Assembly: GCA_964354285.1 (NCBI GenBank)
Contig: CAYGYR010000001.1
Location: forward strand, 518,424-582,423
Source: an uncultured Methanosarcinales archaeon
GTDB taxonomy: Archaea; Nanobdellota; Nanobdellia; Woesearchaeales; ARS49
DNA length: 64,000 nucleotides
Direction: 5' to 3'
Shown one piece after another: positions 4,278 to 60,788 of this stretch (the stretch's first letter is position 1; every line of letters starts with the position of its first letter). A program made the position numbers and the translations under genes. The notes under the pieces were generated by a model. It saw only the letters and a program-made list of their open reading frames with translations, ran no database searches and was not told the DNA's origin.

Positions 4278-4408
4278 AATGCATCACCACTTTTTTTGAT
4301 TTTTAAATGTATATCTATTACCATATACTATTTTGTTTATAAATATTTCGCTTGATATTTCTTAAAAAAGTATTTATAATACCTGTTGTTTCAAGCCATT
4401 GGTTGGAC

Positions 4409-4789
4409 ATGGGAAACATACATCATACGCAGACAAGAAATATAACCGCAATTGTTGATAAGTGCGGCGTGGCAAGAAAAGTAATCTATTCTAATTTTTC
4501 TTTGGTTACCCTTCTTCCTGGCAAACGCGAGAGGATGCACTTTCATGGCAAAATGGAAGAGCTTTATTTCTGCTTACTGGGCTATGGCAGGATTGCTTAT
4601 GTTGATGGTGAAAAGGAAATAAAAGGCCCCCGTGAATTTATAGCTGTCCCAAAAGGCATGATGCATATGATTGTAAATGACAGCCAGGCAAACCCTCTTG
4701 AGCTTATTGCCGTGAATAATCCTGTATATGATGCAGCAGATGTTTTATTCGAAGAAGACTTAAAATATATTGAAGAAGAAGGAAAATAA
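4409..4789 (+). CDS. Cupin-domain protein
   Basis: HFHGKMEE...H cupin metal motifs; internal start chosen. Confidence 0.5.
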   Translation: MGNIHHTQTRNITAIVDKCGVARKVIYSNFSLVTLLPGKRERMHFHGKMEELYFCLLGYGRIAYVDGEKEIKGPREFIAVPKGMMHMIVNDSQANPLELIAVNNPVYDAADVLFEEDLKYIEEEGK

Positions 4790-6495: not shown

Positions 6496-6906
6496 TTACT
6501 TGTCTCTCTCCTGCTTAACAACTGCCTTATAGATGCAGAAATCAATTACATCAATCCTCTTGGTATCTGGATTGTAGGCAATGACTTCCCGCACGCCAGG
6601 CTTTTTAACTCTCTTCAGCCCGACATAATCCTGGTAGTTGATATCTATTGGCATGACTTTATCGCCTTTCCAATAAGCAACTTCTGTTGGGACAAGGTTT
6701 CCAGATTCAAGATCTGCAACAATATCATCAAGCGCAGCCTTACTGACTTTAGGCAGCCCCTTCATGTTTAGGACGTCCTTGTTATCAAAGTTTGCAGGCG
6801 TGCTGCTTTGCACTTTTATTCTGAAATTATATGCGCTGGTCTCCTTTGAAAGCGGGTCTGCCTGCTTATCCTCTTTTTCATATGCTTTAAATCTTCCACT
6901 CACCAT
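6496..6906 (-). CDS. Hypothetical protein
   Basis: ORF only. Confidence 0.35.
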   Translation of the reverse strand: MVSGRFKAYEKEDKQADPLSKETSAYNFRIKVQSSTPANFDNKDVLNMKGLPKVSKAALDDIVADLESGNLVPTEVAYWKGDKVMPIDINYQDYVGLKRVKKPGVREVIAYNPDTKRIDVIDFCIYKAVVKQERDK

Positions 6907-6988
6907 TATGTCTCCCCTCCGAATTCAAAATTAATGCATGGGAAATTAAAGTTTTATATAAATTTTACTAATTGCTTATTTTTTATAA

Positions 6989-7140
6989 CGCAGACTCGCT
7001 GGTGAGTCTGCGGGATACAACGAAAATCTTCGATTTTCGTGTACACAAAATTCCGCGGAATTTTGTTGTAACAAATTCAAGCCGCATCTTAAGCTCTGTA
7101 TTCCCAATCTACTGGGTGAGATTTTAAGGCTTGAATTTGT
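6989..7140. repeat. Array of four perfect palindromic hairpins: CGCAGACTC(gctggt)GAGTCTGCG; ACGAAAATC(ttc)GATTTTCGT; ACAAAATTCCG/CGGAATTTTGT; 13-bp inverted repeat ACAAATTCAAGCC...GGCTTGAATTTGT
   Basis: Read directly from the sequence: 6989-7012, 7020-7040, 7045-7066, 7071-7083/7128-7140. Confidence 0.7.
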
Positions 7141-7555
7141 TATAAAACCAGCAAGTCTCTTTTTCAAGCTTGCTTTTTTTCTGTGTAAGAACATAAATCC
7201 TGCCAACATCATTATTTAGGTCAATACCTGCTATGTATGCAAGCCTTGCTTCAAGGCCCTGTTTTTCTGCAGGAATCCTTATCACACTGCCCACATCAGA
7301 AGCAGTATACTTACATTGCGGAGTATGCATCTGCAAGGAATTTTTTGCATCTTGCCCTGCAGTATTTTTCAAAGCTTCAATAACTTTGCTCGCATCATAC
7401 TTTGGAAAGTCAGCATGCGCATATCTATCCTTTTTTGCAGAGCTTTTGCTGCCTGCTGAATAATCATTGTCATCTTCACGCTCATCTATGGCTGCCTGCG
7501 CCCAGATCTTGTCTGTGTCCCTTCTTTTCAGGACAGATATATCATCTTTTGTCAT
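7124..7555 (-). CDS. Hypothetical protein
   Basis: ORF only. Confidence 0.35.
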   Translation of the reverse strand: MTKDDISVLKRRDTDKIWAQAAIDEREDDNDYSAGSKSSAKKDRYAHADFPKYDASKVIEALKNTAGQDAKNSLQMHTPQCKYTASDVGSVIRIPAEKQGLEARLAYIAGIDLNNDVGRIYVLTQKKSKLEKETCWFYNKFKP

Positions 7556-7573
7556 TTTAGTTCACCCACCTGC

Positions 7574-7822
7574 TCAAAAATAAACATCTATGCTTTCATG
7601 GCTTGGAGCATCCTCTCCACGTGCACGCCCGCCCTTGAAAAAGTATGGCTCTTTGCTGTACATTTTTTTCAGATCAGAATCTTTTTTCATTAATTCTTTG
7701 AACTCCTCTGGGGTGCCGCCGCATGCATAGCACGCTTCAGCCATCACTGCGCAAATGCTTTCCTCAGTGGCGGTTCTTACTCCAATATGTTCATTATCTC
7801 CACTCATCTTGATTACCTCCAA
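7574..7822 (-). CDS. Small Cys-containing hypothetical protein
   Basis: ORF with a CAVMAEACYACGG motif. Confidence 0.3.
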   Translation of the reverse strand: MEVIKMSGDNEHIGVRTATEESICAVMAEACYACGGTPEEFKELMKKDSDLKKMYSKEPYFFKGGRARGEDAPSHESIDVYF

Positions 7823-7865
7823 AGCAAATAAATAGGAATTAAACGGCGGTTTATAAAGATTTTGA

Positions 7866-8069
7866 CCAAACTTTGGGAAAGTTTAACCAAACAAAGTTTG
7901 GTGAGACCCCAAAAACGCTTCGCGTTTTTGATGGTTTGATCAAAATGCGCTCCTCGTTCAGGCTCGAGAAGCATTTTATCGGCTGTTTTTCTTGCGAAAA
8001 ACAGAGGTTCTACTCTTCTGTCGGAAACTTGTAAAGTTTCCGAGCACCGTCAGAAAACGTTGTTTTCTG
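7866..8069. repeat. Array of six perfect short hairpins in a divergent intergenic region
   Basis: AAACTTTgggAAAGTTT 7868-7884; CCAAACaaaGTTTGG 7887-7901; AAAAACGCttcGCGTTTTT 7911-7929; CTGTTTTTCttgcGAAAAACAG 7983-8004; CGGAAACTTgtaAAGTTTCCG 8022-8042; CAGAAAACgttGTTTTCTG 8051-8069. Confidence 0.7.
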
Positions 8070-8159
8070 AGGTCTCGCCTTCACGATGTCGCGCAGACGT
8101 TGATTGTGGCTCATGAAGTCTTGCAAACATTTTTAAATCCAATATTGTTCTTGATTTTT

Positions 8160-11036
8160 ATGGATCTGGGGGAGAGAATTAATGAGCTTGAGCAGAAGCT
8201 CCATTCATTTATAAAAAATGATGAGCTAGAGAAAGCATCAGAACTCATTCTTGATAAAAAAGATGAAGCAGTCAAGCTCACTGAAAATTATGTTCCGGAA
8301 AGCGCCTTGAAAGCATTAAAAATAAAATTCGCGCTTCACTGGCCAGATGGGAGCGGCTCCTATGGTTCTCACGAAGATTATGATCAGCAGAATATAACAA
8401 GGAGAAAACTATTCGGTCTTGAACATGATTTGCTAAGCGTGCACAATCCCAGAAGGGCGGAAAAATTATTTGCAGAGGCAAAACCGAGACTTGAGAAAGT
8501 ATATGGGGCTGAGTTTGTGTGCAGAGAAGATGTTGCAATAATGAACGGCCTGTATCACAATAGAAAAAAGCTAGAAGAAAAGGCTGAGAACCTGCAGGAA
8601 CTGCTTTCGCGCATAAATCTCTTTAAAGATTTTTCAAAGAAATACCTGAATTTCGGCTGGGAAGAAATAACAGATATGTGGAGGCATGACAGGTTACGTG
8701 AAGATGTGACAGATTCTGCAATTGCGCTTGTTGGCTTAATGAAAGATGTCAAAGACCCATCGAGAATGATGTATCTTAAATCATCTCATGTTAAACATTG
8801 TGATGGCCCGTGGGAGCAAGAGGAATCAGGCATGCCTGACCTGCTTAATACGCACGGCCACGGAAGCATTCTTATCAGTGATTTCGATCACAGCAGTTGG
8901 TCTTCTTATCATGACCATGTTCTAGATTATCTAAGCGCAATCCTGATTGCAGGGAAAGCAGGAAACCTTGATTTCAGGAATGCATTAAATCTTGCATCTT
9001 TCAGTTGGGCACAAAGTGCAGGAATGAATATTGAGAAATACCGCTCTGCCTTTGTTTCAGTTGAGCGTGATCGTGTTCCAAAAAGAATCACAGAGATTGT
9101 TGATGAAACCTTAACAAGGCAGTATCATAACAGGCAGCCAGGGGATGACTGCTCAAGATTCATGAGGCATCTTGCAAATTTTTTTCTTGAAAGGTGGAAA
9201 GCAACTGCTGTTGATTACGACCTGCTTTTTGATTTCCATGTTCCAGAACATAGGGACCTGCAACAAATAGATTTCTTCTACCGCATCAGAGACGGGAAAG
9301 AGCCAGCATATGAAGACAAAAGAGCTTCTATAGGGAGGCTTCCAGATGTGCTCCGCCTGCTTGTCCAGGATGGTGTGCTAAAAGAAAGCGAGATAGACCC
9401 GCCATTAAGAAAAAAATACCTGCTGCCAGATGAAATGAGAGCAATACTCAGCTCTGGAAAACTTCTGACAGATGGAAAAGGAACAGCTGAGTCACTGAAC
9501 CTGCCGATGAAATACAAGCCAGCAGTGATTGCAACAAAAGCAAGCCCTATCAAGCTGATTCCTGAATTCACAGAGAAAAAACTTCCTGCCCTAAAGGATG
9601 ACCTGAGCGCCCTGGCAGGAGTGCTTGACCCGGATAGCTCTTATTATGTCCTTTTCAAAGGAAACCACACACTATTCCTTGCAAAAGAAGAGCACTGGCC
9701 TAATGGCGATCTTGTACTGCAGGACATACAAAGGATAACACTCCTTGAAGACAATGCAAATCCAGCAGACGGAGCTGTCATCAAGCTTCGAGGCCAGAGA
9801 TTCTATGTCAGAAAAGAAAAAAGCCTTGACGAGCAGCAAAAACTGCGAAACGCAATCTTCAGTTCAAAAACAGACCTTGTGCCTGTCAAATGCTATACCT
9901 TTATCACAAGCGCCACACCAGAAGAATTCAGGCAGAACTACTTCAAAGACTTCATGGCGCACGTCATGCTGAACAGGCCATGGCTTGATGCAGAAGCGAT
10001 AATTAAAGACCTGCACAGGATAGATGATATGCCTGCAACAGGCCTGAACGTGGGCATAGGCCCTACAGGACGCACAAGCTTTAGGACATTTGAGGTTGCA
10101 GGCAGATTCTCATTCCAGCTAAAGTACGATAGCATACTTGGCCTTGAAGAGGTCCTCTCGATCGCACTGCAATTGAAAAATTACATAGAGGGAGTCGGCC
10201 TGGGAATACACCAGGAGATAGGCCTTGACGAGTATGGCAGGGCACGGGTAAAAAGAAAACTAGAAGACAGGCTTTTCTACCGGGAAAATTTTGCAGCAAT
10301 TGCAGAATCACTCAACGGGCCAAAGCTTGCAGATGCGCTTGCAGCAGCCCTTGCGTACAAAGAACACGCCTTTTATAGGATTGGAGCATCATATACGCCG
10401 TGCGAGCACTGCGGCAAAAAATATGTTTCTGGCAACATTTACAGGCCTGACCTGCGGGAGCAGTGGTGTGAGGGCATACGAGGTGATGAGCTGCATGCGA
10501 TATCAAGGCATCCTGAAACATTTGAAGACGAGTTCAGTGCATTAAGAAAAATAAGGCGAATGCTCACAGACATAAAACCAGCAGAGCAGCCCATTATATT
10601 TTCACATCCAGGGCTGATGCCTGAATTTGACAGTTTTGCAAGAGCATATGATGATTCTGCTAAAGCAGACAGCGCCAGTTTTGATTTCTGTATGAACACA
10701 GGGGGAGGCCTTTCACATATAGAAGACGAAGACCTGGAGGACGATGTGGAATTAAAAAAATTATCTGCTGAAGAGTCAAATCTGCATTCTAAAATCGCAG
10801 AAAGCAATGATGTTTTAGAAACTGCAAGGGATTTGCTTCAAAAAAAATATGAGTCTTTACAAGGCATTGCTGCTTCTGAAGCAATGAAAGATGAAGATGT
10901 CTGGAAAAACTTGCGCTTCTGGGCAGATCAATTGTTCTTATTTGATATATACAGCTTAGCTGCACCAGAACTGACAGAATGCTTCGCAGAATCCTGGATA
11001 ATGAAAAATCCAGGCAAGCTAATGCGGGACCGTTAA
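8160..11036 (+). CDS. Large uncharacterised protein (959 aa) with His-rich segments and a C-terminal CxxC motif
   Basis: Long uninterrupted ORF; start moved to the first ATG after the hairpin array; no Walker A or other recognisable catalytic motif. Confidence 0.55.
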   Translation: MDLGERINELEQKLHSFIKNDELEKASELILDKKDEAVKLTENYVPESALKALKIKFALHWPDGSGSYGSHEDYDQQNITRRKLFGLEHDLLSVHNPRRAEKLFAEAKPRLEKVYGAEFVCREDVAIMNGLYHNRKKLEEKAENLQELLSRINLFKDFSKKYLNFGWEEITDMWRHDRLREDVTDSAIALVGLMKDVKDPSRMMYLKSSHVKHCDGPWEQEESGMPDLLNTHGHGSILISDFDHSSWSSYHDHVLDYLSAILIAGKAGNLDFRNALNLASFSWAQSAGMNIEKYRSAFVSVERDRVPKRITEIVDETLTRQYHNRQPGDDCSRFMRHLANFFLERWKATAVDYDLLFDFHVPEHRDLQQIDFFYRIRDGKEPAYEDKRASIGRLPDVLRLLVQDGVLKESEIDPPLRKKYLLPDEMRAILSSGKLLTDGKGTAESLNLPMKYKPAVIATKASPIKLIPEFTEKKLPALKDDLSALAGVLDPDSSYYVLFKGNHTLFLAKEEHWPNGDLVLQDIQRITLLEDNANPADGAVIKLRGQRFYVRKEKSLDEQQKLRNAIFSSKTDLVPVKCYTFITSATPEEFRQNYFKDFMAHVMLNRPWLDAEAIIKDLHRIDDMPATGLNVGIGPTGRTSFRTFEVAGRFSFQLKYDSILGLEEVLSIALQLKNYIEGVGLGIHQEIGLDEYGRARVKRKLEDRLFYRENFAAIAESLNGPKLADALAAALAYKEHAFYRIGASYTPCEHCGKKYVSGNIYRPDLREQWCEGIRGDELHAISRHPETFEDEFSALRKIRRMLTDIKPAEQPIIFSHPGLMPEFDSFARAYDDSAKADSASFDFCMNTGGGLSHIEDEDLEDDVELKKLSAEESNLHSKIAESNDVLETARDLLQKKYESLQGIAASEAMKDEDVWKNLRFWADQLFLFDIYSLAAPELTECFAESWIMKNPGKLMRDR

Positions 11037-12419: not shown

Positions 12420-14483
12420 TTGATGAATAAGACTGAAATACTTGCTCTAATTATTTTATTTCTGATAGCAAGCAGCGGCATGGTTTACATGATGTATTCT
12501 GAGGATATAGGCAAGGCCTGGTTCGGAGGAAAACGCATATCAATCTCAAAGCTTGATAAGCTTGTTGTTGCACCAGCATCTGTGCCAACTGCTGCTCCGG
12601 CACCACCGGCGCCCACACCAGTTCCTGCACCAACACTGCCATCTACAGAACCAAGATGCGCAGATGTTATTATCAATGGACCGCCAGAAGATAAAATCAA
12701 TGTCATCTTCATAGGCATAAATTACGCAGATAACTCTTTATTTGAGCAGCATGTTAACCTGGATATAGATTGGAACGGACAGAATTACGGCCTGTTCTCA
12801 GTCGAGCCATACAAAACATACAAAGAGCAATTCAACTTTTACAGAATAGACTATACTTCTAACACCTTTGACTGTTTAGGTAAGGATACACCAACAGCTT
12901 GTGGTGGAGTGCCTTATGAAAGCATTCGTGCTTTTGTCAAACAGATTTGCGGCGATAAATTATTGAAAGGTATAGAGACAGGAATGATTGCAGCAGACCC
13001 CTTTATAGAGGTTTTGATTAATGAACCAAATCAGGGTAATGCTGGTTGGAGTCCGATAGGACAAGGAGTCTCATTGATGTGGAGTTCAGGAGTTTCAGAA
13101 GAACCAGCATACAGGCAGGTATTCACTCATGAATTAGGCGGGCACGCCCTTGCAGGATTGCAAGACGAATATAGAGGAACACCCAAGGACATGCCTCAAA
13201 CATTCTGTTCGCATCAATACTGCCAGCAATTCCTTCAAGCAATAGGATATGGCGGAGACCGGCCTGAAGAACAGGCGTCCAACTGCGATAAAGCAGGATG
13301 CACCAAATGGGCAAACCTACTAGGCCAAGACGGGATAGACTGTGTTAACTTATGCGGCGGATATGAGGACTTATACCATCCTACAAAATGCCAGATAATA
13401 GTTGACCAAGATGGAAATCCTGTAAGAAAGACTGAAATAGGAAAAGATAATGCAAAATACCTGATGAAATGCAACATTATGGATAAACCCACAGGGGTAG
13501 TAACCGGCAGAAACAATCAAGGAGAAGAATGGAACGTAAACCCAAAAGAAATAGACAGTTACACGTACCAATATTTTGACCTAGTTGCGCAGACAGCTAT
13601 CAGAAAACAGATACAGCGACTAATTAAATATCCTCTTTGTAGTCAAAGCGAACCAGAATGTGAGAAGGCAGTAAGGCTTTTCAAATTAATACCTCCAGTA
13701 AAAACCCCTGGCGGGTATATTCAAGGTGTCTTTGACAAAGAGAAAAAGTTCACTTTGCATCAATTCGGAATTGTTTACGATGCCTTGACCAGTCTTCCAG
13801 CAGATTTGATGTCTGCATTAAAACTTCTTGTTTTCTCTCCTCACCCCACTTTAGGCAGTGGAGCGAACAGTATTCCGGAAACAGGAGAAGTATACTTAGG
13901 ATACAGGACAGACAAGTATTTACAAACAGACAAAGCTTTATTTTGCGTAGTTATTCATGAAATGGGGCATTTAATTGAAACGAATAAGAATGTCGAGAAA
14001 TCATTCAGAAGCATTTGTTATGATCGGATTGGAGAAACATGGCAAAGAAAGTCAGAATGTGAGATTTATTTGGATTTTGCGCCGCAATTAGTTGAAGATA
14101 ATTGGAATACTGAATTAAGAGCAAGATCTGCAGGAGGGGATGGCCGCGAGGATATTCCTAATGCATTCGAATATTATGTCTGTGCCGGAGATTTATTCAG
14201 GGCTGAAGCAAGAGCAAGGCCTAAAATGAAAGAGAAATATTTATTCTTAAAAGACAGATTGTTCAATGGGAAAGAGTATAAATGTGAGATTGACAGCTGC
14301 CTAACCTTAGTACCTCCGCCAACACCGTGCGGAAGCAACGGATGTGCAAGCTGCAAGAAAACAGGCGATCCCTGCATAACTGCCTGCAATGACTGCCCAG
14401 CAATCGCCGGCTGCGGTCCTGGCGGATGCAAACAATGGACATGCACAAATAATCAATGCATCATTGCCGGGCAAATAAAATAA
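12420..14483 (+). CDS. Secreted, membrane-anchored zinc-metallopeptidase-like protein with a Cys-rich C-terminal module
   Basis: N-terminal TM, Pro/Ala linker, HELGGHALAGLQDEY and HEMGH (HExxH) motifs, and a C-terminal CxxC-rich region. Confidence 0.55.
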   Translation: MMNKTEILALIILFLIASSGMVYMMYSEDIGKAWFGGKRISISKLDKLVVAPASVPTAAPAPPAPTPVPAPTLPSTEPRCADVIINGPPEDKINVIFIGINYADNSLFEQHVNLDIDWNGQNYGLFSVEPYKTYKEQFNFYRIDYTSNTFDCLGKDTPTACGGVPYESIRAFVKQICGDKLLKGIETGMIAADPFIEVLINEPNQGNAGWSPIGQGVSLMWSSGVSEEPAYRQVFTHELGGHALAGLQDEYRGTPKDMPQTFCSHQYCQQFLQAIGYGGDRPEEQASNCDKAGCTKWANLLGQDGIDCVNLCGGYEDLYHPTKCQIIVDQDGNPVRKTEIGKDNAKYLMKCNIMDKPTGVVTGRNNQGEEWNVNPKEIDSYTYQYFDLVAQTAIRKQIQRLIKYPLCSQSEPECEKAVRLFKLIPPVKTPGGYIQGVFDKEKKFTLHQFGIVYDALTSLPADLMSALKLLVFSPHPTLGSGANSIPETGEVYLGYRTDKYLQTDKALFCVVIHEMGHLIETNKNVEKSFRSICYDRIGETWQRKSECEIYLDFAPQLVEDNWNTELRARSAGGDGREDIPNAFEYYVCAGDLFRAEARARPKMKEKYLFLKDRLFNGKEYKCEIDSCLTLVPPPTPCGSNGCASCKKTGDPCITACNDCPAIAGCGPGGCKQWTCTNNQCIIAGQIK

Positions 14484-17618: not shown

Positions 17619-17738
17619 AAATAATAGGTATCTACTTAGAGTAAAACATTCTAGGAAAGAAAAAAACGACCTAGAGTAAAATAAAAAAAAATCCGTGCCG
17701 GATTTTTAAACTTCAAAATCTTTTTGAAGTAAAATAAA

Positions 17739-18257: not shown

Positions 18258-18279
18258 ATCAACCATAATCTCACATTCA

Positions 18280-18334
18280 TTACAAATTCAAAATTGAATT
18301 TGTAATTCCAAAAATTTGTTAAAACAAATTTTTG
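18280..18334. promoter_or_regulatory. Two perfect 12-bp palindromes upstream of L11
   Basis: TTACAAATTCAA(aa)TTGAATTTGTAA 18280-18305; CAAAAATTTGTT(aa)AACAAATTTTTG 18309-18334. Confidence 0.6.
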
Positions 18335-26540: not shown

Positions 26541-26688
26541 ATTGGTTTGGTTACGATTAGGATTTATATAAATGTATCTTGAGAGAAAGATTTTTATACG
26601 GTACTAATAATAACTTGCTGCATAAGAGACAGCACAGAACCTTTTGGTTCCGCTGGTCTCAATTTTTAGGAAAAATTGAGGTGAAATT

Positions 26689-33006: not shown

Positions 33007-33058
33007 TTTTATAATTTTTGATTGTTTAAAAATTTGAAAATTTTTAAGCTCAAAAATT

Positions 33059-33367
33059 CTATAATTTTTGATTGTACTCTTTCTGTAATAATAATGTGTA
33101 TATGAACAGCGAGATTATAATCAGCTCAAAGAATCCATTAATGTGCATAGGAATGCTTATCATTCCTGCTGCCCTGAGCACTGTCAGCACTTCCTCAACT
33201 ATGAATACAAACAGGGCGATAAAAATTATTTTCCAAGGCTTCAGGTAAACCTTCTTGTTCTTTACAGGCGTGTTGAACAATTTGATGAAAAGATACACTG
33301 TTATGATTACAAGCACAAGATTATAGTAAGGGGCAGCCAAGCCAAGCGCAACTGTGAGCTCGCTCAT
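33059..33367 (-). CDS. Small 3-TM membrane protein
   Basis: About 100 aa; tandem paralog of 33368..33670. Confidence 0.4.
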   Translation of the reverse strand: MSELTVALGLAAPYYNLVLVIITVYLFIKLFNTPVKNKKVYLKPWKIIFIALFVFIVEEVLTVLRAAGMISIPMHINGFFELIIISLFIYTLLLQKEYNQKL

Positions 33368-33670
33368 TCAGTCCGCCCCCTTTGTTATGTTTATTTGAAT
33401 TATGAGCGCAGCTATCACAAACAAGAGTATGAAGAAGGGAATAATATGAGTCATGTGAGGCGTGCTGTAGATGCCGAATGATTTAAGGGCGCCAACAATC
33501 TCCTCACCCATGAAAATCACGAGGGCAACTATCATCCACTTCCATGCGCTAAGGATTTTTTGCTGCCTAGATGCCTCAATCATGCTGATGGCAATGATTC
33601 CTGCAATTATGGATAAGAATGCAGCTGCAAGCTCTGCAGTGCCTAAAATCCAGTCATATGTTGTAATCAC
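33368..33670 (-). CDS. Small 3-TM membrane protein (paralog)
   Basis: About 100 aa with the same topology; abuts 33059..33367. Confidence 0.4.
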   Translation of the reverse strand: MITTYDWILGTAELAAAFLSIIAGIIAISMIEASRQQKILSAWKWMIVALVIFMGEEIVGALKSFGIYSTPHMTHIIPFFILLFVIAALIIQINITKGAD

Positions 33671-40367: not shown

Positions 40368-40460
40368 GCCCCTGTAGTATAGCTTGGATAGTACGCGAGG
40401 TTGCGGACAGCGTGTAAATGCAAAAACCTTGAAACTGGGGTTCAAATCCCCGCAGGGGCG
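40368..40460 (+). tRNA. tRNA-Arg (GCG) with an anticodon-loop intron of about 19 nt
   Basis: Acceptor GCCCCTG/CAGGGGC; anticodon stem CGAGG/CCTTG around TTGCGG plus intron; T-loop TTCAAAT. Confidence 0.7.
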
Positions 40461-40521
40461 TGTTTTAAAATCCTTAAACTGTGTCACAATATTTAAAAAT
40501 AAGTTCTTACGAAGCAAGCTC

Positions 40522-41799
40522 ATGCAGGAATACTATCTGTCCCGAAATGCCAACAGCGAGGAATCAATAAAACTTTTTCTTAGAGATATTGGCAAACAAG
40601 AGATTCTCAAAAAAGAAGAAGAATTCGCATTGGCAGAGCAGATGGCGTACTACAAGAAAGAGATAATCCTAAACTTGTGCAGGCTTCCTGACTACAAAAA
40701 CTGCCTTGAAGACAGGTTAAAAGAATACAATGCTTATTGCGGGCAGATTGGAAAAAAAGAGCAGATTGAGAAGATACTCAATGACAAAACAAAAGGTGTT
40801 GAAACACGCCTCAAGTCTTGCATGGAACAAGTTGACAGAATAAACGCACGCTTAGCCTATCTTGCAAAAAATAGCAGCAGCGTTGGTGTGAGAAAGATAA
40901 CTAGCCAATTAAGAATCCATAAGCATAATCTGATAAATGATCTTGATTTTCCTCGCGACTTCATCTACAGGCTTATATTTGACCTGAAAGAAGCAAATCT
41001 TGGCAGGAGGTATGATGCAATAACAGAGAGAGTATACAAGCTCAATGAGTGTTATAATTCTGCTTTTGAGCTGTTTTCCAACTCAAATCTTAGGCTTGTT
41101 GTGAGTATTGCGAAAAAATATAGGTTCAGGGGATTTACTTTCGGAGACCTTATCAACGAGGGATGCTTTGGCCTGATAAGAGCCATAAACAAGTATGATT
41201 ACAAAAGGGGATATAAGTTCTCCACATACGCAACTTGGTGGATAAGGCAGGCAATACTTCGCGCTCTGGCTGACAAGGCAAATCTCAGAAGGATTCCAAT
41301 CCACATACTTGAGAAAAGAAACCTCATCAGTAAAGCAAGAGCTTGCCTCAGGGAAAAATCAGATGAAACACCCACTGTTGATCAGCTGGCAGAAGAAGCG
41401 AATATGTCTATTGCGGAAGCAGAGAACATTGAGAATGTATTTTCACGCAAGACAATCTCTCTTGATAAGCCTGCTAAAGATGACGATGATGATTACGGCA
41501 GCATGGTTGACTTTATGGTTGATGATAAATCTGCAAATCCTCCAAAGGAAGCAATAAGAAATGATATGAAGATAACAGTGCATAAAGTTCTCAATAATGC
41601 ACTTGACAGCAGGGAGCAAGAGATAATAAAACTAAGATACGGCATACCTGACGGCGCAAAATACACCCTTGAGGAAGTAGGCAGGATTTTCAGGGTCTCA
41701 AAGGAAAGAATCAGGCAGATAGAAGCAAAAGCAATGAGCAAACTGCAGCATCCTAGAAGCCCAAAGCTAAAAGCTTTTCTTGAGAAAGTAGGCAGATGA
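40522..41799 (+). CDS. Bacterial-type sigma-70 family RNA polymerase sigma factor (regions 1.2, 2, 3 and 4 present)
   Basis: [11 protein letters not shown] (region 1.2); [13 protein letters not shown]...[37 protein letters not shown] (region 2); [26 protein letters not shown] (region 4 HTH). The larger ORF start overlaps the tRNA, so the start is set at M47. Confidence 0.8.
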
Positions 41800-45392: not shown

Positions 45393-45674
45393 TTATATCC
45401 TTTAACATATATTTTTAATCACGAAAATATTTATATATAAGAATTGTTTTATAAAAGAAAAATTAATTTTTAAACAAGTGTTTGGCGACACAAGTTTAAA
45501 ATCGTGTGTTTGTATTTGGCGTATCTTAGTATTGGCGTTCTAAGATAGTTAGATGAACGAATGTGCTTTCTTGAAAGACTTGTTGGCGCAAATCCTCAAA
45601 AACCCGTTCTAAGAAGTTCAAAGTATGAACTTAGATATAAACATTTCGTTATTGAAATGTATATATCATAAAAT

Positions 45675-45723
45675 ACAGAATTGCTTGCAATTCTGTGAGA
45701 TCACAAATTTTGAGTAATTTGTG
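45675..45723. promoter_or_regulatory. Two palindromes upstream of ftsZ2
   Basis: ACAGAATTGC(tt)GCAATTCTGT 45675-45696; CACAAATT(ttgagt)AATTTGTG 45702-45723; TTGGCG triple repeat further upstream. Confidence 0.55.
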
Positions 45724-45764
45724 ATACATCTAAAAAAAAGGGGAACCAAAAGGGGGGATGCCAA

Positions 45765-49574: not shown

Positions 49575-50129
49575 ATGCAATTAGGAAAAACATTATGTGT
49601 AACCAATAGAAAAGATTGGCGTTCATGGCTTGCTAAAAATCATAATAAAGAAAAAGAAATTTGGCTAATTTATTATAGAAAATCATCTGGCAAGCCAAGG
49701 ATACCATACAATGATGCTGTTGAAGAAGCACTCTGTTATGGATGGATAGACAGCATTATCAAGTCTATTGATGAGGAAAAATTCGCCCAAAGATTTACGC
49801 CGCGAAGACCAAAAAGCGTGCTTTCAGAGCTGAATAAGGAACGTATCCATAGACTGATTGCAGATAAGAGTATGACTTCTAAAGGCCTTAATGCAGTCAG
49901 CCATGCATTCGATAAAAACCAGAAATTTACAATTGCCCCCTATATTTTGAAAAATCTTCAACAAGACCAGGAAGTTTGGAAAAACTTCCAGAACTTTCCT
50001 CATTCATACAAACGCATTCGTATCGGTTGGATAGCATCAGCTAGAACTCGCCCGAAACTTTTTAGTCAGAGATTAAAATATTTTCTAAAGATGACTGCAA
50101 AGAATAAAAAATATGGGATGATGCAGTAA
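49575..50129 (+). CDS. YdeI/OmpD-associated family protein (DUF1801-like)
   Basis: WRSWLAKNH...CYGWIDS...FTPRRPKS family pattern. Confidence 0.55.
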   Translation: MQLGKTLCVTNRKDWRSWLAKNHNKEKEIWLIYYRKSSGKPRIPYNDAVEEALCYGWIDSIIKSIDEEKFAQRFTPRRPKSVLSELNKERIHRLIADKSMTSKGLNAVSHAFDKNQKFTIAPYILKNLQQDQEVWKNFQNFPHSYKRIRIGWIASARTRPKLFSQRLKYFLKMTAKNKKYGMMQ

Positions 50130-50486
50130 TAAACTGACAGCAGTTATTTATTGAATTCTCTAAATATTGATTCCAGACTTATAATTCCCTCAGGTAAAGA
50201 AGGAACTCTCCTAGAGAAGGATTAGTTCCCCAAAAAGGGTCTCTGATTTTGCAGAGGTTTGGGCAGGGCTAATCTTTTTTTAAACCGCATCTTATCCAAG
50301 ATAATCTGCAGTATTTACGCCAGACTTCTAATATCTTTTCGAACAGATTTTACGAAATCTTTATAAAGGTTTATAGGCTATCGCATATAGCTTAAATTAG
50401 GAAAATACAAATATACGACTATAAATAATTTGGTTGATCAAATAAATTATGTTTGTTTTCTTCCGGATATTTAGAGATGAATTAAT

Positions 50487-51020
50487 ATGGCAAAATTATC
50501 ATTAAAAGGATATGAATTTGAAGATGTTATTGTTAAAGACTCTTTTAACAGAAGAGAGTTAGCCTTTGCAAATAACATAATACGCACTTTAAAACAGATT
50601 GGTGTTGATGAAGATCAAATAGAGGTTAGTCATGAAAATCTGCCCTTGACAAAAAAACCAGCTCGTGTTTCATGGTATCACAAAGAAAGGCACCATTATT
50701 ATAGTTATTCAGGAAAAAGATTTGTAGACAACCTGTTTGTAGTTAATAAAATTATTAGCTTAAGCGTACTTGATGTCATTGAAGCCAGAAAAAGCTATGA
50801 AGATTTTTCTCTAGATTTTTTAGAAGAAACAAATATAGAGGATAAAAGGAAAGAGGCCAGAGAATATTTTGGTCTTAAAGAGAATTTTACGATGGCGGAT
50901 GTTAATAATGCATATAAGCAGCTAGCCAAGGATTTACATCCAGACATGCCTAATGGGGATGGAGAGAAGTTTAAGAAATTAAATGAAGCCCACAAAATTC
51001 TTAAGAGAGAACTAACTTAA
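50487..51020 (+). CDS. J-domain protein with an uncharacterised N-terminal domain
   Basis: C-terminal J domain with YKQLAKDLHPDM (HPD motif). Confidence 0.6.
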   Translation: MAKLSLKGYEFEDVIVKDSFNRRELAFANNIIRTLKQIGVDEDQIEVSHENLPLTKKPARVSWYHKERHHYYSYSGKRFVDNLFVVNKIISLSVLDVIEARKSYEDFSLDFLEETNIEDKRKEAREYFGLKENFTMADVNNAYKQLAKDLHPDMPNGDGEKFKKLNEAHKILKRELT

Positions 51021-51074
51021 TTTTAATTATAAAAAACAACAAAGTTTATTAATTAAGTTATCTTTTTTTTAAAA

Positions 51075-51647
51075 ATGGATTTTAAAAACAATTGCAGGAA
51101 GTGCCCAAAAAACACGCATTGCTGCATTTTTAAAAACTCAGGATTTGTTTTTGTAGGCATCAAAGACGCAAGAACAATCAAGAAGCAAACTAAAAAAGAA
51201 TACTGCTTCTTTTTGGATTATTCACCAATTTCAAAAAAAATTGTTAATTGCTTAAAACACGATGATCCTGCTCTTGAAGGAAGATTAAGATATTCCCAAT
51301 TAGATAAAAATAACCGCATTCTCAGATTGAAAACCAAAAAAGACAGCAGATGCCTTTTCTTAAATAAGCATAACTTGTGTGATATCTATGGCATTAGGCC
51401 GAATATATGCAGAATATTCCCTTTTTGGGCAGTGAAGCTGATTAATGGCAAAATTAAGATTATACCTCACGATGTTCAATCTAAGTGCAAAATTATAACA
51501 GCATTAATTAAAAAACAAAGAGATAATATTGATGAAATTTTAAGTAGAAAAGAAAAAATCGAAATCAAGAAAACAGTTAGAAAGATTAAAGATGAGAATG
51601 TCTTCTATAAGAACAATATTCTGAAATTTATAAAAGATATAACCTGA
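51075..51647 (+). CDS. YkgJ-family Cys-cluster protein (paralog of 47486..47998)
   Basis: CRKCPKNTHCC and CRIFPF motifs. Confidence 0.45.
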   Translation: MDFKNNCRKCPKNTHCCIFKNSGFVFVGIKDARTIKKQTKKEYCFFLDYSPISKKIVNCLKHDDPALEGRLRYSQLDKNNRILRLKTKKDSRCLFLNKHNLCDIYGIRPNICRIFPFWAVKLINGKIKIIPHDVQSKCKIITALIKKQRDNIDEILSRKEKIEIKKTVRKIKDENVFYKNNILKFIKDIT

Positions 51648-51670
51648 CATAATGATGTTTCAAACCACAT

Positions 51671-53593
51671 TTACAAAATATCAACTAATTTTATGCACAT
51701 CTTTATCGCATCGCTGCAGTTGTCCATCTTTTTTGAAAGCTTATGGTCATTTGTTGCTTTTTTTACCTGCGAAACCTTGTCTAAAAGAGTCCTGTAAAAT
51801 CTCAATAAATCGCCTTCTGGCAATTGCGTGTTCTCAATCACCTTAAAGATATCCTCGCCATGAAAACAAGGATCGATTAATGCAGTCATTTTAATGATAT
51901 TATCAAAACGCTTTTCAGCCTTGAGATAATCATTTCCATTCAGTTTTGATTTTAATTTTTCTATTGATTTATCAGGATATACCTGTTTGAACTCCTCTTC
52001 TTCCCTGGATTCAAAACATATGCATGCTATCAGCAGCAGCAAATGGTATTCATCAAGATCCTCATAGAATTTGCCAAAGAATATCTCACCCATTAAAAAT
52101 TCATCACAATATATTTTTGATGCAAAAATCCCTTTTTCAGTGAGGCAATCATCTTTTAAATATCCTAGTTTAGTCAGCTTTTTCTTCAAATTATCAAAGG
52201 CATTATGGCTTTTCATATTCCTTCTCTTATCAAAGTTCTTGCCGTATCTCTGGTAAGAATCAAAGCTTTCGCATAATATCTCCGCAATTTCAGGAACAGT
52301 GTGCCTTTGGATCATATTTAATACTGTGTTAGGGGAAATCTTGAACTGCGAGTTTATCGGTTCAGTGTCTTTTGCGATCATCTTTTTAATCTTGTTATAC
52401 TCAAAATCATTCCTGTTTATCATAGGTATAACATATCCTATCTTGTCAATCCCCCTGCGCCCTGCGCGCCCCGCAATCTGGAAAAACTCTTTCGATGAAA
52501 TATATCTGAAATTAAATCCATCAAATTTCCGTAAAGTCTCAAAACAAACAGTCTTTGCAGGCATGTTAATCCCCACAGCAAATGTTTCAGTGGTATACAA
52601 AACTTTAATCAGGCCAAGAGAGAATAATTCCTCGACAATGTCTTTTAAAATCGGGATAAGGCCTGCATGATGAAATCCTATGCCCTTTGACAGTGTTTTT
52701 TTAAGGAGCATTGTTGATTTGAGAGTATTTATTTCCGGGGGCGATTCACTCAGCCTTTCTCTTACCATCTTGATTATTTCCAAATTAGTCTCAAATACGC
52801 CGCAAGTATAAAGCTCATCAGCCATCTTCTCGCATTTTGATCTTGAGAAACTGAAAAACAAGCATGGCAGTTTGTCATAAATATCCTTGATAAGCTCAAT
52901 ATGTGAAGCAGTTTTGATTCTTTTATGCCAATGCCTTGATTTTCCCATAACACTGTCATAATCAGGTATCTCTGCAATGTCTTTAATTTCATTAAGCGAG
53001 GATATGCCTAGCTCAAAATCATAAAAATTTGTTTTTAATGGCACGGGCCGTTCAGCATGCTCGATTACTTGAACCTTGTGATTTTTTATAACACTGATCC
53101 AGTCAGCAAATTCTCTTGCGTTGGGGATAGTTGCAGAAAGGCACAAAAATCTGGTGCTTGACTTTGAAAATATTATAGATTCTTCCCAAACATACCCTCT
53201 TTCAATATCACTAATAAAATGAATCTCATCAAAAATCACGTAAGAGATGTTCTTTATTATGTCATCATCTGACATAAGCATATTTCTATAAATCTCAGTA
53301 GTCATTATAAGAATAGTTGCACCAGGATTTTTCACAGTATCTCCTGTCAATAATCCTATATTCTCTTCACCGTAATCCTTGCAAAAATCTTTGTATTTTT
53401 GGTTTGAAAGCGCCTTGATTGGCGCAGTGTAGATAACTTTTATGCCCTTTTTGATATCGCGGCTGATAATATAATCAGCAATCAAGGTTTTTCCAGAACC
53501 TGTCGGAGCGCTCACTATCACAGAATAGTTTTTTTCAATTGCAATAATGGCTTCTTCCTGAAACTTGTCAAGCTGCAATCCCTTAAAAATCAT
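51671..53593 (-). CDS. Ski2-like DExH-box helicase
   Basis: Walker A APTGSGKT, DEIH box, HHAGL motif. Confidence 0.85.
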   Translation of the reverse strand: MIFKGLQLDKFQEEAIIAIEKNYSVIVSAPTGSGKTLIADYIISRDIKKGIKVIYTAPIKALSNQKYKDFCKDYGEENIGLLTGDTVKNPGATILIMTTEIYRNMLMSDDDIIKNISYVIFDEIHFISDIERGYVWEESIIFSKSSTRFLCLSATIPNAREFADWISVIKNHKVQVIEHAERPVPLKTNFYDFELGISSLNEIKDIAEIPDYDSVMGKSRHWHKRIKTASHIELIKDIYDKLPCLFFSFSRSKCEKMADELYTCGVFETNLEIIKMVRERLSESPPEINTLKSTMLLKKTLSKGIGFHHAGLIPILKDIVEELFSLGLIKVLYTTETFAVGINMPAKTVCFETLRKFDGFNFRYISSKEFFQIAGRAGRRGIDKIGYVIPMINRNDFEYNKIKKMIAKDTEPINSQFKISPNTVLNMIQRHTVPEIAEILCESFDSYQRYGKNFDKRRNMKSHNAFDNLKKKLTKLGYLKDDCLTEKGIFASKIYCDEFLMGEIFFGKFYEDLDEYHLLLLIACICFESREEEEFKQVYPDKSIEKLKSKLNGNDYLKAEKRFDNIIKMTALIDPCFHGEDIFKVIENTQLPEGDLLRFYRTLLDKVSQVKKATNDHKLSKKMDNCSDAIKMCIKLVDIL

Positions 53594-53688
53594 TTTAGAT
53601 TAAGAAAATGTACACCTATTTAAAGCTATCAAACAGATTTTCAGATCTGATGATTGCATAACAATTCTAGTTTTTTTAAGAATGAATA

Positions 53689-54918
53689 TTATCTTCTAAA
53701 ACTAGGCCTACGCCTGAATTTAGATTTAAAATCTCTGCGAAAAGGCCTTTGCTGTTTTGGTGCGGGCTTAGCAGCTGCGCCGACAGCATTTTTTGCATAT
53801 TCTGAATGGTATGCATGCTGCATAACCTCAATCTTTTGCCTAATCAGCTTTTCAATATCGCGAAGAAAATCTCTTTCATCTGCTGCGCAAAAAGAATACG
53901 CTGTGCCTTCTGCCCCTGCTCGTGCAGTCCTGCCTATCCTATGGACATAGCTTTCAGGCAGATTAGGAAGCTCAAAATTTATAACATGAGAAATACAGTC
54001 TATATCAATCCCGCGCGCAGCAATGTCTGTAGCAACCAACACTTGTATTTTTCCTGATTTGAAATCAGAAAGCGCCTGTGTTCGCGCATTTTGTGATTTA
54101 TTGCCATGAATTGCATCCACTTGGATGTTATTCTTGTGTAGATATAATGCAACTTTATTTGCACGATGCTTTGTGCGGGTAAACACTAAAACGCGGGTAA
54201 GATGCTCTTGCCTAAGAAGGTCCAATAACAGCTGTTCCTTAGCAGAAGAATCCACAAAAAAAACACATTGTTTTACACTTTCAACAAGGGTTGCTTGTGC
54301 TGCAGCCTCAACATGAACTGGATTTCTAAGAAGTGTTCCGGCAAGATCGCATATCTGAGGAGACATTGTTGCTGAGAAAAAAAGCGACTGGCGCTTTTGC
54401 GGCAATCTGGATATTATTTTTTTGATATCATTGATAAATCCCATATCAAGCATCCTATCAGCTTCATCTAAAACAAAAAATTCAATGTCTTTCAAGCTGA
54501 TTCGGCCTTGATTCATTAAATCAAGCAATCTGCCTGGTGTTGCGATAACAATATCAACACCCTTAGCCAGAGCATTAACCTGTGATCCTTGGCCAACACC
54601 CCCAAAAATGACAGTATGCTTAAATTTAAGAAACTCACCGTATGCAGAAAAACTTTCACCAATCTGTGCTGCAAGCTCCCTAGTTGGCGCAAGGACTAGT
54701 ACACGGATAGTTCGAGGATATTTTTCAGTCATCCTTTGAAGGATAGGCAATACAAATGCAGCAGTTTTGCCTGTTCCTGTTTGAGCTATGCCTATTAAAT
54801 CTCTCCCTTTCAAGAGATCAGGAATAGCTTTTGACTGTATTGGTGTCGGCTCAACATACCCCTGTTTGGCAATTGCCCTTTCAAGAGGCTCTATCAGATT
54901 TAGATTTTTAAATGACAT
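53689..54918 (-). CDS. DEAD-box ATP-dependent RNA helicase (RhlE-like) with a basic C-terminal tail
   Basis: Q-motif, [15 protein letters not shown] and HRIGRTAR motifs. Confidence 0.9.
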
Positions 54919-55010
54919 TTTAGTTTTTTATAAATTAATAAGCATGCTTTATGCTTTTAAAGGTATGGTTTATTAAGGTATGCAATTAAATTATTCAGTA
55001 TTCACATATA

Positions 55011-55034
55011 CAGCCCTGTGGTGTAGCAGCCAAG
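55011..55034 (+). other. Orphan duplicate of the tRNA-Gln(CTG) 5' segment
   Basis: AGCCCTGTGGTGTAGCAGCCAAGC versus the tRNA 5' end AGCCCTGTAGTGTAGTGGCCAA (20 of 22 identical); intron-like TATTCAG lies just upstream. Confidence 0.5.
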
Positions 55035-55073
55035 CAATAAATATTTATACCTTTTCTTCTATCCAATTCACTT

Positions 55074-55979
55074 GTGAGAGTCCAATTTAAATCATCAAAA
55101 CAAAGAGAAGTAATTCTGAATTTTAAACAGAATACTGATTTAACTTGGCAAGAACTTGCGGATTATTTGCATGTCAGAAAATCAGCATTATTAACCTGGT
55201 ATCATGAAAAAACTTTGTTGCCGTATGCAATATACATAATATTAGATAAAAAAGGACTGTTCAAAGAGCACATTCTAGAACTTAAAAATGATTGTTGGGG
55301 CCAAAGCAAAGGAGGAATTGCATCAACAGGAACAACAAAAGAAATATCCTTGCCAAGGCCTTGTACAGATTTAGCTGAATTAATCGGCATTGTATTAGGT
55401 GATGGTAATATCCATGAATACATTCAGACTAAAAAAATTAGGACATATATGCTAAGAATAGCGGGAGATTCGAGAAAAGACAGAAATTATCTTGTGACTT
55501 ATGTTGCTCCGCTCTGCGAATGCTTGTTTTCAATCCAGCCAAAATTTTTATATCAAAAACAGAGCAATGAGCTTTTTGTTATATTACACAGCAAGAAAAT
55601 CATTGAGTTCTTTAAAAAAATGGGCTTAACGCCAGGTAACAAAATCAAGAATCGATTAAATATTCCTGGCTGGGTACTCGAAGATGAGACATATCTTCGA
55701 GCATGTTTGCGTGGTTTAATAGATACAGACGGATCTATTTTCAGAATGTCAAATAGAGATCCGCAATTATTGAGAATTAATTTTAGAAATGTAAATAGCT
55801 CTTTGCTTGAAACTGTTTATAAGTCTTTTATTACGTTAGGATTTAAACCGGCACTTGCAAATAATGTAGTTTACTTATCTAGGAAGCAAGATATAGTAAA
55901 CTTTTTAAAAGGCATAGGTTTTTCTAATAGTAAGCATAGGTTAAGGCTTAAGAAGTTCAAAGGCAGCCCTGTAGTGTAG
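55074..55979 (+). CDS. Free-standing double-motif LAGLIDADG homing endonuclease with an N-terminal HTH-like region
   Basis: LIGIVLGDGNI and LRGLIDTDGSIF motifs; the last 15 nt overlap the tRNA-Gln 5' end. Confidence 0.8.
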   Translation: MRVQFKSSKQREVILNFKQNTDLTWQELADYLHVRKSALLTWYHEKTLLPYAIYIILDKKGLFKEHILELKNDCWGQSKGGIASTGTTKEISLPRPCTDLAELIGIVLGDGNIHEYIQTKKIRTYMLRIAGDSRKDRNYLVTYVAPLCECLFSIQPKFLYQKQSNELFVILHSKKIIEFFKKMGLTPGNKIKNRLNIPGWVLEDETYLRACLRGLIDTDGSIFRMSNRDPQLLRINFRNVNSSLLETVYKSFITLGFKPALANNVVYLSRKQDIVNFLKGIGFSNSKHRLRLKKFKGSPVV

Positions 55980-56072
55980 TGGCCAAATTTTTATTCAGCG
56001 TATGCTGAATAGAAAGGCTAGGCATGATTGGCTCTGGACCAATCGACGGCGGTTCGAATCCGCCCGGGGCTA
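55965..56072 (+). tRNA. tRNA-Gln (CTG) with a non-canonical intron of about 35 nt in the D-loop region
   Basis: Acceptor AGCCCTG/CGGGGCT, anticodon stem ATTGG/CCAAT with loop CTCTGGA, T-arm GGCGG-TTCGAAT-CCGCC; extra segment ATTTTTATTCAGCGTATGCTGAATAGAAAGGCT after GTGTAGTGGCCAA. Confidence 0.6.
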
Positions 56073-56134
56073 TTATTTATTCTGTATCAAAAGATGAGCA
56101 ACTTGGTAGAGATGTCCTGACAGGGATATTCTGA

Positions 56135-56629: not shown

Positions 56630-56755
56630 AATATTAAATAACTTAACTCAATATTTAAACATTTCCAAAGTTTCTCATCAAATGATACAAAAATCATAGA
56701 TATCTGTGAGGGGCTATCGATTCTTTTCTTCCAGCCCTAAATTCAACTCTTAGAA

Positions 56756-57516: not shown

Positions 57517-57569
57517 AATTCTTATTAAAGAATTTGCTCTTATAAACTTTTCTAATGAACTTGATTAAA

Positions 57570-57959: not shown

Positions 57960-57983
57960 ATTAGCATTGTTAACTCAACTGAT

Positions 57984-60754: not shown

Positions 60755-60788
60755 ATTTTTATTTTTTTATTTAATTTCTTTCCTTTTC

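Follow-up and report, generated by a model that had tools for sequence, protein, structure and literature searches.

Lineage-specific hairpin arrays in a Woesearchaeota chromosome segment: probable build-ups of small palindrome-bearing insertion modules

Two hairpin arrays upstream of a large gene

The 64,000-nucleotide stretch of contig CAYGYR010000001.1 analysed here (the window, whose numbering is used throughout) holds ten inverted repeats with perfect 7–13-bp stems, lying in two short regions at 6989–7140 and 7865–8070 upstream of a gene for a 958-amino-acid (aa) protein. The window is an archaeal chromosome segment, with a thermosome gene, FKBP26, intron-containing tRNAs and a GC content of ~41%, and by thermosome sequence its nearest genomes are Candidatus Woesearchaeota metagenome-assembled genomes (DPANN archaea); names such as L001 and L006 are labels of comparison loci or contigs. 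The first array overlaps the last codons of a minus-strand gene for a 143-aa protein and lies upstream of the promoter of a 136-aa gene, whose TATA-like box (6953–6963, minus strand) is kept in all relatives and precedes a ribosome-binding GGAGGGG and an ATG at 6906. The second array separates two divergent genes. One encodes a 77-aa protein (ATG 7807, GGAGGT) and has a TATA-like box at 7850–7857 on the minus strand, kept in L001, L006 and L010; the other is the large gene (8160–11036, plus strand), with a TATA-like box at 8130–8138 (plus strand) that follows all the hairpins, precedes the ATG at 8160 by 26 nt and is kept in L001. Both boxes are putative promoters.

Seven of the ten repeats have perfect 9–11-bp stems and loops of 0–6 nt, while the other three have perfect 7–13-bp stems around loops of 16–44 nt. 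The first array consists of hairpins at 6989–7012 (9-bp stem, 6-nt loop), 7020–7040 (9 bp, 3 nt), 7045–7066 (11 bp, no loop) and 7071–7140 (13 bp, 44 nt). The second comprises those at 7865–7902 (11 bp, 16 nt, with an alternative fold into two 7-bp hairpins with 3-nt loops), 7910–7930 (9 bp, 3 nt), 7983–8004 (9 bp, 4 nt), 8021–8043 (10 bp, 3 nt) and 8050–8070 (9 bp, 3 nt), together with a 7-bp repeat, AAAATGC...GCATTTT, at 7942–7977, whose 22-nt loop lies in mostly ancestral sequence: the inner part is present in L001 and only the outer AAA is supplied by an insertion (block 2, below). The original prediction had placed the ten perfect hairpins correctly, but its loop lengths of 2–6 nt were wrong for the three long-looped ones. 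Stems are formed of Watson–Crick pairs throughout, with no G-T (G-U) pair, and all palindromes differ in sequence, with irregular loop lengths and spacing. What many do share is the A-run core that had been noted at the outset, the 5′ arm being A-rich rather than T-rich in 11 of the 14 window hairpins and in 59 of 90 hairpins at other loci.

Counting only hairpins with a perfect stem of at least 8 bp and a loop of at most 8 nt, the two regions hold three and four, compared with means of 0.05 and 0.12 in dinucleotide-shuffled sequence, and RNA folding gave z = −9.1 for 6980–7145 (minus strand) and z = −4.8 for 7858–8125. Sixteen of the 18 perfect stems of at least 9 bp in the window are intergenic, though intergenic DNA makes up only ~10% of the sequence, and seven of these 16 fall within the two regions. 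Such hairpins are not a general property of the intergenic DNA, as only seven of the 37 intergenic regions of at least 60 nt contain any (55980–56134 and 60755–60950, with one 8-bp stem apiece, are additional to these seven), and the two regions are, as claimed, denser than any other in the window.

Three hairpin blocks are absent from a syntenic relative

The L001 contig is syntenic with the window, encodes a large protein 84% identical to that of the window, and aligns across the whole region at ~86% identity except for three gaps, at window ~6984–7140 (157 bp), 7878–7942 (64 bp) and 7988–8120 (133 bp), which together make up nearly all of the hairpin DNA and which we call blocks 1, 2 and 3. 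The genes and all three TATA-like boxes are retained in L001, where the two divergent boxes lie 82 bp apart as opposed to 281 bp in the window. Homologues of the 143-aa protein led to six more contigs, in all of which block 1 is missing at the window's site; L001, L006, L007, L008, L009 and L010 lack the insertion there, and their empty sites read TTTTGTA(A/G)AACC. The presence of block 1 also alters the C-terminus of the 143-aa protein, which ends ...WFYNKFKP* with the block and ...WFYKK* without it. Among extra intergenic blocks of at least 15 bp in the window compared with relatives, four of eight are hairpin blocks (404 of 616 nt), and none of the coding-region indels carries a hairpin. 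By these alignments the blocks are recent, lineage-specific insertions.

A mobile module family at block 1

Block 1 (6985–7140) is a composite insertion of ~156 bp with four hairpins, absent at this site in six relatives. It is bounded by two plus-strand TATAA pentamers read from the sequence, at 6980–6984 and 7141–7145, which would represent either a target duplication or a target together with a matching element end. Within them, a conserved terminal module, CGCAGACTC-gctggt-GAGTCTGCG followed by GGATA (6989–7017), has homologous copies in L006 and L010. Next, after CA, come the two hairpins of a nested piece of ~52 nt (7018–7070), ACGAAAATC-ttc-GATTTTCGT at 7020–7040 and ACAAAATTCCG/CGGAATTTTGT at 7045–7066, and then a last hairpin, ACAAATTCAAGCC...GGCTTGAATTTGT (7071–7140), whose 13-bp stem encloses a 44-nt loop that itself folds. 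The arm core of this last hairpin occurs also in L006 (GCAAATTCGA) and at window 18279–18306.

The L006 contig is from the same species, its 143-aa homologue being 100% identical apart from the C-terminus, and it carries its own element of 53 bp and two hairpins, 30 bp from the block 1 site, in the opposite orientation and inside the TATA-like box of the 136-aa gene. This element reads TATAA, CACAGACTCG-tcg-CGAGTCTGTG, GGATA, GCAAATTCGA-gaaggt-TCGAATTTGC, TATAA, and the window is empty at its site. A third copy, in L010, lies ~3.8 kb away, directly 3′ of a stop codon, at a site that is empty in the window and in L011; it reads AATAA, CACAGACTCG..54 nt..CGAGTCTGTG, GGATA, AAAAAAGTGCA..75 nt..TGCACTTTTTT, ATAAG. 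The family pattern is therefore (T)ATAA, a CRCAGACTC hairpin, GGATA, variable hairpins and (T)ATAA, in elements 53–190 bp long that each start and end with a perfect hairpin. The (T)ATAA on both sides in all three copies fits a 5-bp duplication and a target plus matching 3′ end equally well.

Across three related genomes, members of this family are found at three different sites, some in one orientation and some in the other, and every site has an empty counterpart in other genomes, which is the signature of a mobile element. On this comparison, the CRCAGACTC-GGATA family has moved to at least three sites among related genomes. A remnant of a hairpin-repeat mobile element, one of the options in the original prediction, is thus supported in substance by presence and absence, by flanking repeats, and by the same module at different sites and orientations. 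Relative to the L006 element, block 1 has the extra two-hairpin piece in its linker and 44 nt in its loop, so that the array looks like modules nested in modules.

Blocks 2 and 3

Block 2 (7878–7942), an insertion of ~64 bp, is absent from L001 and present and identical in L006. It forms the hairpins at 7865–7902 and 7910–7930 and a palindrome at 7936–7945, and holds an 11-nt exact inverted copy of its own left flank (P = 0.002). Block 3 (7988–8120), an insertion of ~133 bp also absent from L001, holds the hairpins at 7983–8004, 8021–8043 and 8050–8070 and an imperfect stem at ~8074–8098. L010 has a compensated variant of the hairpin at 8021–8043, likewise with a GCAC tail, and L036 has a related one.

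Three independent assemblies of the same or a near-identical strain (L004, L005 and L006; two Logan, one MEGAHIT) break within 7991–8012, inside block 3 at the hairpin CTGTTTTTC-ttgc-GAAAAACAG, which suggests that the population is heterogeneous at this point.

Related modules elsewhere in the window and in other lineages

Five other intergenic sites in the window have hairpins of the same class, either one alone or two or three side by side. Where such hairpins form modules, they are lineage-specific, with flanking direct repeats of 6–15 nt; the gene names L11, Spt5 and GAPDH used for their neighbours were assigned by reading. A two-hairpin module upstream of the Spt5-like gene (17687–17730) is flanked by a 12-nt direct repeat, AGTAAAATAAAA, and is absent from relatives. 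Another, of 56 bp (18279–18334), sits between a conserved TATA box and the ATG of the L11-like gene; in seven relatives ~25 nt, free of hairpins, separate the box and the ATG. Three adjacent hairpins lie upstream of an ftsZ gene confirmed by Pfam (45634–45725), and a single one (26658–26680) precedes, by 9 nt, a gene with a product starting MIRVAINGFG... (GAPDH-like on reading only). A separate stem in the Spt5 5′ untranslated region (UTR), at 17651–17678, reads attCTAGG...CCTAGag in the window and attCTAGC...GCTAGgg in L094, a compensated change; this stem is possibly a conserved leader structure unrelated to the inserted hairpins.

The fifth site, between convergent genes at 33 kb, has the most intricate history. 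Its two-hairpin module (33024–33071) is flanked by a 15-nt direct repeat, ATAATTTTTGATTGT, that preserves the C-terminus of one of the two genes. The site is empty in L173 and L174 (92% and 86% relatives), has a different insert in L172 (a 99% relative), and has a homologous module with its own co-varying repeats in L175 (an 81% relative). The relatives also show that the real gene at ~33059–33370 on the minus strand encodes a 102-aa membrane-like protein ending ...EYNQKL*, and that the plus-strand open reading frames (ORFs) in the longest-ORF list at this place are not the real gene.

A wider survey covered 1.2 Mb from ~160 other Woesearchaeota loci. The hairpins are patchy: of 171 sequences, made up of the window plus 170 loci, 102 lack them altogether, and the survey's density is 0.095 per kb versus 0.27 per kb in the window. 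Arrays do occur in other lineages, with five hairpins in a row in L117 and clusters in L036 and L026. On L133, a distant Woesearchaeota contig, at least eight hairpins are packed into ~500 bp upstream of Spt5 (L133 520–800), among them an exact copy of window 7021–7039 and a ACAAAATTC hairpin like that at 7045–7066.

Several of the window's hairpins recur across these lineages at non-homologous positions. The second hairpin of block 1 matches L133 581–599 exactly over 19 nt including the loop; the third hairpin's type (7045–7066) recurs with its flanks in L133 and L117; GYAC-ACAAAATT..AATTTTGT-TGTR is found in the window, L133 and L117, and TCGGAAAY..TTTCCGA-GCAY in the window and L036. A linker, GTRTCC/GGAYAC, connects hairpin pairs in five lineages. 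More generally, 8-mers from window arms lie inside perfect hairpins of other lineages at a rate of 0.90%, versus 0.22% for shuffled 8-mers. Within the 64-kb window the ACAAATTCAA arm appears in two hairpins and most other arms once. Taken from sequence comparison, the modules occur genome-wide and in other Woesearchaeota.

Origin of the arrays

We consider it likely, though well short of certain, that the arrays have built up from small non-coding insertion modules, each bearing palindromes, in Woesearchaeota intergenic DNA. The blocks would then be selfish or neutral inserted DNA and not the control region of a neighbouring gene. The basic unit would be two adjacent perfect hairpins, ~50 bp in total, landing in AT-rich spacer DNA and also inside one another, and blocks 2 and 3 would be further insertions of the same class that widened the spacing between the divergent promoters from ~82 to ~281 bp. 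Mobilisation would act in trans, probably on folded single-stranded DNA, through an enzyme for which the cue is hairpin shape together with a short motif at the junction, by analogy with Y1/HUH enzymes acting on the ends of IS200/IS605 elements, palindrome-associated transposable elements (PATEs) and repetitive extragenic palindromic (REP) sequences. Such a mechanism would account for stems that are perfect in every case and whose differences are all compensated: among homologous hairpins we found at least six fully compensated stem changes and no uncompensated one. Together with the lack of G-T pairs, this implies that pairing is either required or regenerated, and template switching may add both to array growth and to stem perfection. 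Effects on the host are probably incidental, namely the altered C-terminus of the 143-aa protein, the wider promoter spacing and hairpins in some UTRs.

Several observations weigh against an origin by mobile insertion. The 38 larger ORFs of the window contain no transposase domain, and the IS200-type motif HUH...Y..NQ has no match in six frames of 1.28 Mb. Flanking repeats range from 4–5 to 15 nt, unlike the product of one transposase with a fixed stagger, and unlike IS200/IS605 elements, which are expected to insert without target duplication. The inverted flank copy in block 2 suggests that this block, at least, was synthesized from a local template, and the pattern among relatives at 33 kb demands either repeated precise loss or repeated gain. 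Most hairpin sequences are unique, only some forming recognizable families. A universal tag beside the stems was rejected, as no one tag is enriched over the whole set of hairpins: the best 5-mer has P = 2e-4 before correction for 1024 tests, and TRTCC lies beside stems eight times versus ~6 expected.

Some of these points would be met by a second explanation, in which the hairpins are made in place by template switching, a fold-back or strand switch that copies nearby sequence in reverse complement, with no mobile element involved. Template switching is documented to create and maintain perfect hairpins and to produce multi-base compensatory changes (PMC8794818). It would account for the stem differences all being compensated and for the block 2 flank copy, to which the 33-kb module adds a 9-nt copy (P = 0.07); at the 33-kb site, moreover, the arm changes in step with both direct repeats in each lineage, and direct repeats of variable length suit slippage better than a transposase. 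However, nine of 11 polarized inserts have no flank copy, inverted or direct, beyond chance, and a flank-templated origin fails as a general rule, only block 2 being significant. Nor would local copying put CRCAGACTC-GGATA between the same short flanks at three sites, unrelated to one another, in three genomes, or identical and near-identical hairpins with their flanks at non-homologous positions in distant lineages. Hairpins within an array are no more alike than hairpins of different arrays (permutation P = 0.78), a result that tells against local synthesis and that also excludes diverged tandem copies as their source. As the sole origin of the arrays we therefore regard template switching as unlikely.

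Distribution and tests of function

The very low folding energies and the compensated stem changes would be expected if the hairpins were selected RNA elements, such as bidirectional terminators, protective stems at 3′ ends or structured 5′ leaders. With A-rich 5′ and T-rich 3′ arms (11:3 in the window, 59:31 elsewhere), transcripts of both strands would have a U-run on the 3′ side of the stem. In position, block 1 falls at the 3′ end of a unit of two genes, the 33-kb module sits exactly at the junction of two abutting convergent genes, and other modules precede housekeeping genes (L11, Spt5, GAPDH and ftsZ). Yet the hairpins are missing in close relatives that have the same genes and promoter boxes, blocks 2 and 3 lie between divergent promoters, where transcripts do not end, and the TATA-like box of the large gene is downstream of the hairpins. 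Several stems have T-runs of only 3–4, and pure Watson–Crick stems without G-U pairs are more typical of DNA-level palindromes.

Over 1.27 Mb, hairpin density was 0.46 per kb in intergenic versus 0.033 per kb in coding DNA, a 14-fold difference. Convergent, divergent and tandem spacers held 10, 12 and 43 hairpins compared with 12.2, 15.0 and 37.8 expected (chi-square P = 0.43), with neither convergent enrichment nor divergent depletion. Within tandem spacers their position was uniform (mean relative position 0.50), with no preference for the stop or start side. Counts that follow the available base pairs, with no positional bias, speak against a general role as terminators or leaders, and the distribution looks like that of tolerated insertions. 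A terminator function was rejected on this lack of positional enrichment and because a scan with consensus terminators passes over the flagged hairpins. A known RNA family was likewise rejected, as Rfam searches gave only tRNAs above gathering thresholds in the window, and a permissive search of 6850–8250 gave a best E of 0.14, far below that family's gathering score. Altogether a role as selected RNA elements seems to us improbable, and the specific proposal of a structured 5′ leader or attenuator for the large gene is not supported, since that gene occurs in L001 without the hairpins and its own box follows them.

An operator array repressing the divergent promoters, also proposed originally and suggested by palindromes lying between two promoter-like boxes, is hardly credible, because no two palindromes share a sequence, loop lengths and spacing follow no regular pattern, the genes and both promoters persist in L001 with no palindrome at all, and hairpins of the same kind lie at gene 3′ ends and between convergent genes.

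Comparison with known small palindromic elements

Among described systems, the closest in kind by sequence features are the terminal-only PATEs of haloarchaea, followed by the REP sequences and bacterial interspersed mosaic elements (BIMEs) of bacteria, with membership of neither established. PATEs derive from IS200/IS605-type transposons in haloarchaea, and their terminal-only forms are 52 bp long with two near-terminal palindromes and are apparently mobilized; other small repeats insert into such palindromes (PMC3119063). The modules described here resemble them in having an archaeal host, a length too short for a protein, no terminal inverted repeats, strain-specific occurrence, two near-terminal palindromes ~50 bp in all and a short AT-rich junction sequence, and the repeats nested in PATE palindromes may be compared with the 44–75-nt loop fillings seen here. 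They differ in the direct repeats of 6–15 nt at several modules (the 12- and 15-nt ones included), as PATEs cause no target duplication, in the dissimilarity between a module's two hairpins, and in that we found no IS200/IS605 transposase or full-length parent among the 38 window ORFs or in the 1.28-Mb motif search. IS608-type left ends carry a guide segment, for which there is no room here, the conserved hairpin directly abutting (T)ATAA.

REP sequences, BIMEs and REPINs are bacterial repeats mobilized by REP-associated tyrosine transposases, or RAYTs (PMC3733652, PMC3116915). Like them, our hairpins are extragenic palindromes of 20–40 bp that occur singly, as dimers or in arrays, vary between strains, keep their stems by compensated changes and in some cases have a short motif alongside (GGAYA here, GTAG there). 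Unlike them, they are far more diverse in sequence and are not preferentially downstream of genes, and a GTAG/CGTC tag stands beside none of the ten flagged stems. RAYTs and tagged REPs have been reported only from bacteria, the only TnpA known in archaea being the typical IS200 type (PMC3733652, PMC6006769), and no RAYT gene was found among the window ORFs or by motif search of the 1.28 Mb. We entertain, as a tentative and rather doubtful proposition, that these are a previously undescribed system of two-hairpin, ~50-bp modules in Woesearchaeota, an archaeal counterpart of REP/BIME. Its enzyme would recognize hairpin shape plus GGAYA/GTRTCC next to (T)ATAA in place of a fixed sequence, modules would nest to form arrays, and one arm would be copied or repaired from the other in a single-stranded intermediate. 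As no IS200-type transposase is detectable in the 1.28 Mb searched, the mobilizing enzyme could be of a new kind. We found no paper on such modules in DPANN archaea.

Other small elements fit less well. MITEs (miniature transposable elements with inverted repeats), for example the Correia elements of Neisseria, have terminal inverted repeats that match those of a parent transposon. Similarities lie in their being small, non-autonomous and intergenic, with AT-rich target repeats and hairpin folds, and in their ability to alter neighbouring transcripts; MITEs were rejected, as here one end of an element is not the inverted repeat of the other (CACAGACTCG and the reverse complement of the other end, GCAAATTCGA, agree at one of 10 positions). 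Integron attC sites, Helitron/IS91 ends and casposon-type duplications are misfits in stem length, terminal motifs or repeat lengths. A viral origin or vector was also rejected: with the signature CAGACTC..GAGTCTGNGGGATA there was one chance match, within a phage gene of high GC content; no match came from two other module patterns, and a looser one gave 15, about the random expectation. Hairpins made by template switching share with ours the perfect stems, the multi-base compensated changes and, in block 2, an arm that is an inverted copy of adjacent sequence (PMC8794818), but for most of our inserts a local template is lacking, and some modules are common to unrelated sites and genomes.

DPANN archaea have tiny genomes in which little mobile DNA is known. 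If the interpretation as mobile insertion modules is correct, a 50-bp palindromic family gained and lost within a species would be a main source of intergenic change in this group, one that reshapes promoter spacing, gives UTRs structure and has rewritten the C-terminus of one protein, and that may be one reason why assemblies break at such sites. Should the mobilizing activity not be IS200-type, it would be a new way of moving hairpin DNA. The modules also lend themselves to a natural test of what keeps stems perfect, selection or a copying mechanism. For annotation, hairpin clusters of this type should not be called riboswitches, attenuators or operators.

The adjacent large gene

The start of the large gene should be annotated at 8160. 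The original prediction favoured this ATG over the upstream TTG of the longest ORF, and two observations bear it out: 5′ of 8160 the window and L001 have different reading frames, and a 41%-identical homologue begins at about the same position. Because the box at 8130–8138 lies downstream of all hairpins and 26 nt before the ATG, the hairpins are not the leader of this gene, whose transcript, to judge from that spacing, is probably leaderless. A one-base difference in a G-run (window 8166–8170, L001 1066–1069) places the L001 gene out of frame with this ATG; in L001 the frame is open solely from an ATG farther upstream, equivalent to window 7944. An assembly error, a genuine frameshift or the use of another start could each account for this.

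The gene is a neighbour of the hairpin blocks and no part of them. A functional tie between the two was rejected, as L001 has the gene without the hairpins and, on reading, the region upstream of the 41%-identical homologue in L002 has no obvious hairpins. Nor is it the strict orphan it was first taken for, although its family is rare and unannotated: an index of 5.8 billion proteins holds only three relatives, L001 being the closest, whereas a profile search of 1.84 billion representatives found 65, most of them near full length and about 40 at E ≤ 1e-30. A scan of a genome collection with the 958-aa protein gave no match, and the protein has no sequence match in Pfam, PADLOC or the PDB. Its AlphaFold model is confident (predicted local distance difference test, pLDDT, 84.3), predicts a long helical N-terminal part and mixed alpha/beta domains, and has no Foldseek match in the PDB. 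Residues C748, C751, H779 and H784 are invariant in the family. In L007 and L008 the gene is absent and the upstream gene directly adjoins that for cytidylate kinase, which marks it as an accessory gene.

Other features of the window

A bacterial-type sigma-70 family gene (40384–41799, plus strand, likely start ~40522) lies between a tRNA-Arg and archaeal genes. It has Pfam Sigma70 regions 1.2, 2, 3 and 4, matches an RpoD C-terminal domain model at E = 1e-79, and resembles MzaA of the MZA anti-phage system at 303 bits, well under that model's cut-off of 800. An M64-peptidase-like gene (12420–14483) encodes 687 aa in the window versus 345 aa in L001 (5338–6375), the ~1 kb of extra coding sequence falling into four blocks (~12606, 12748, 13002 and 13616). 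Relative to L011, whose thermosome is 92% identical, the window has an additional 1.3 kb (1672–2960) that includes a NIF3-family gene and an additional 427 bp (4353–4789) covering a cupin-like ORF, so gene content has changed around the thermosome locus. Finally, the region 50000–58000 has a GC content of 31–36% versus ~41%, and contains genes for DnaJ-domain, CxxCxxCC, Ski2-like helicase and DEAD-box helicase proteins.

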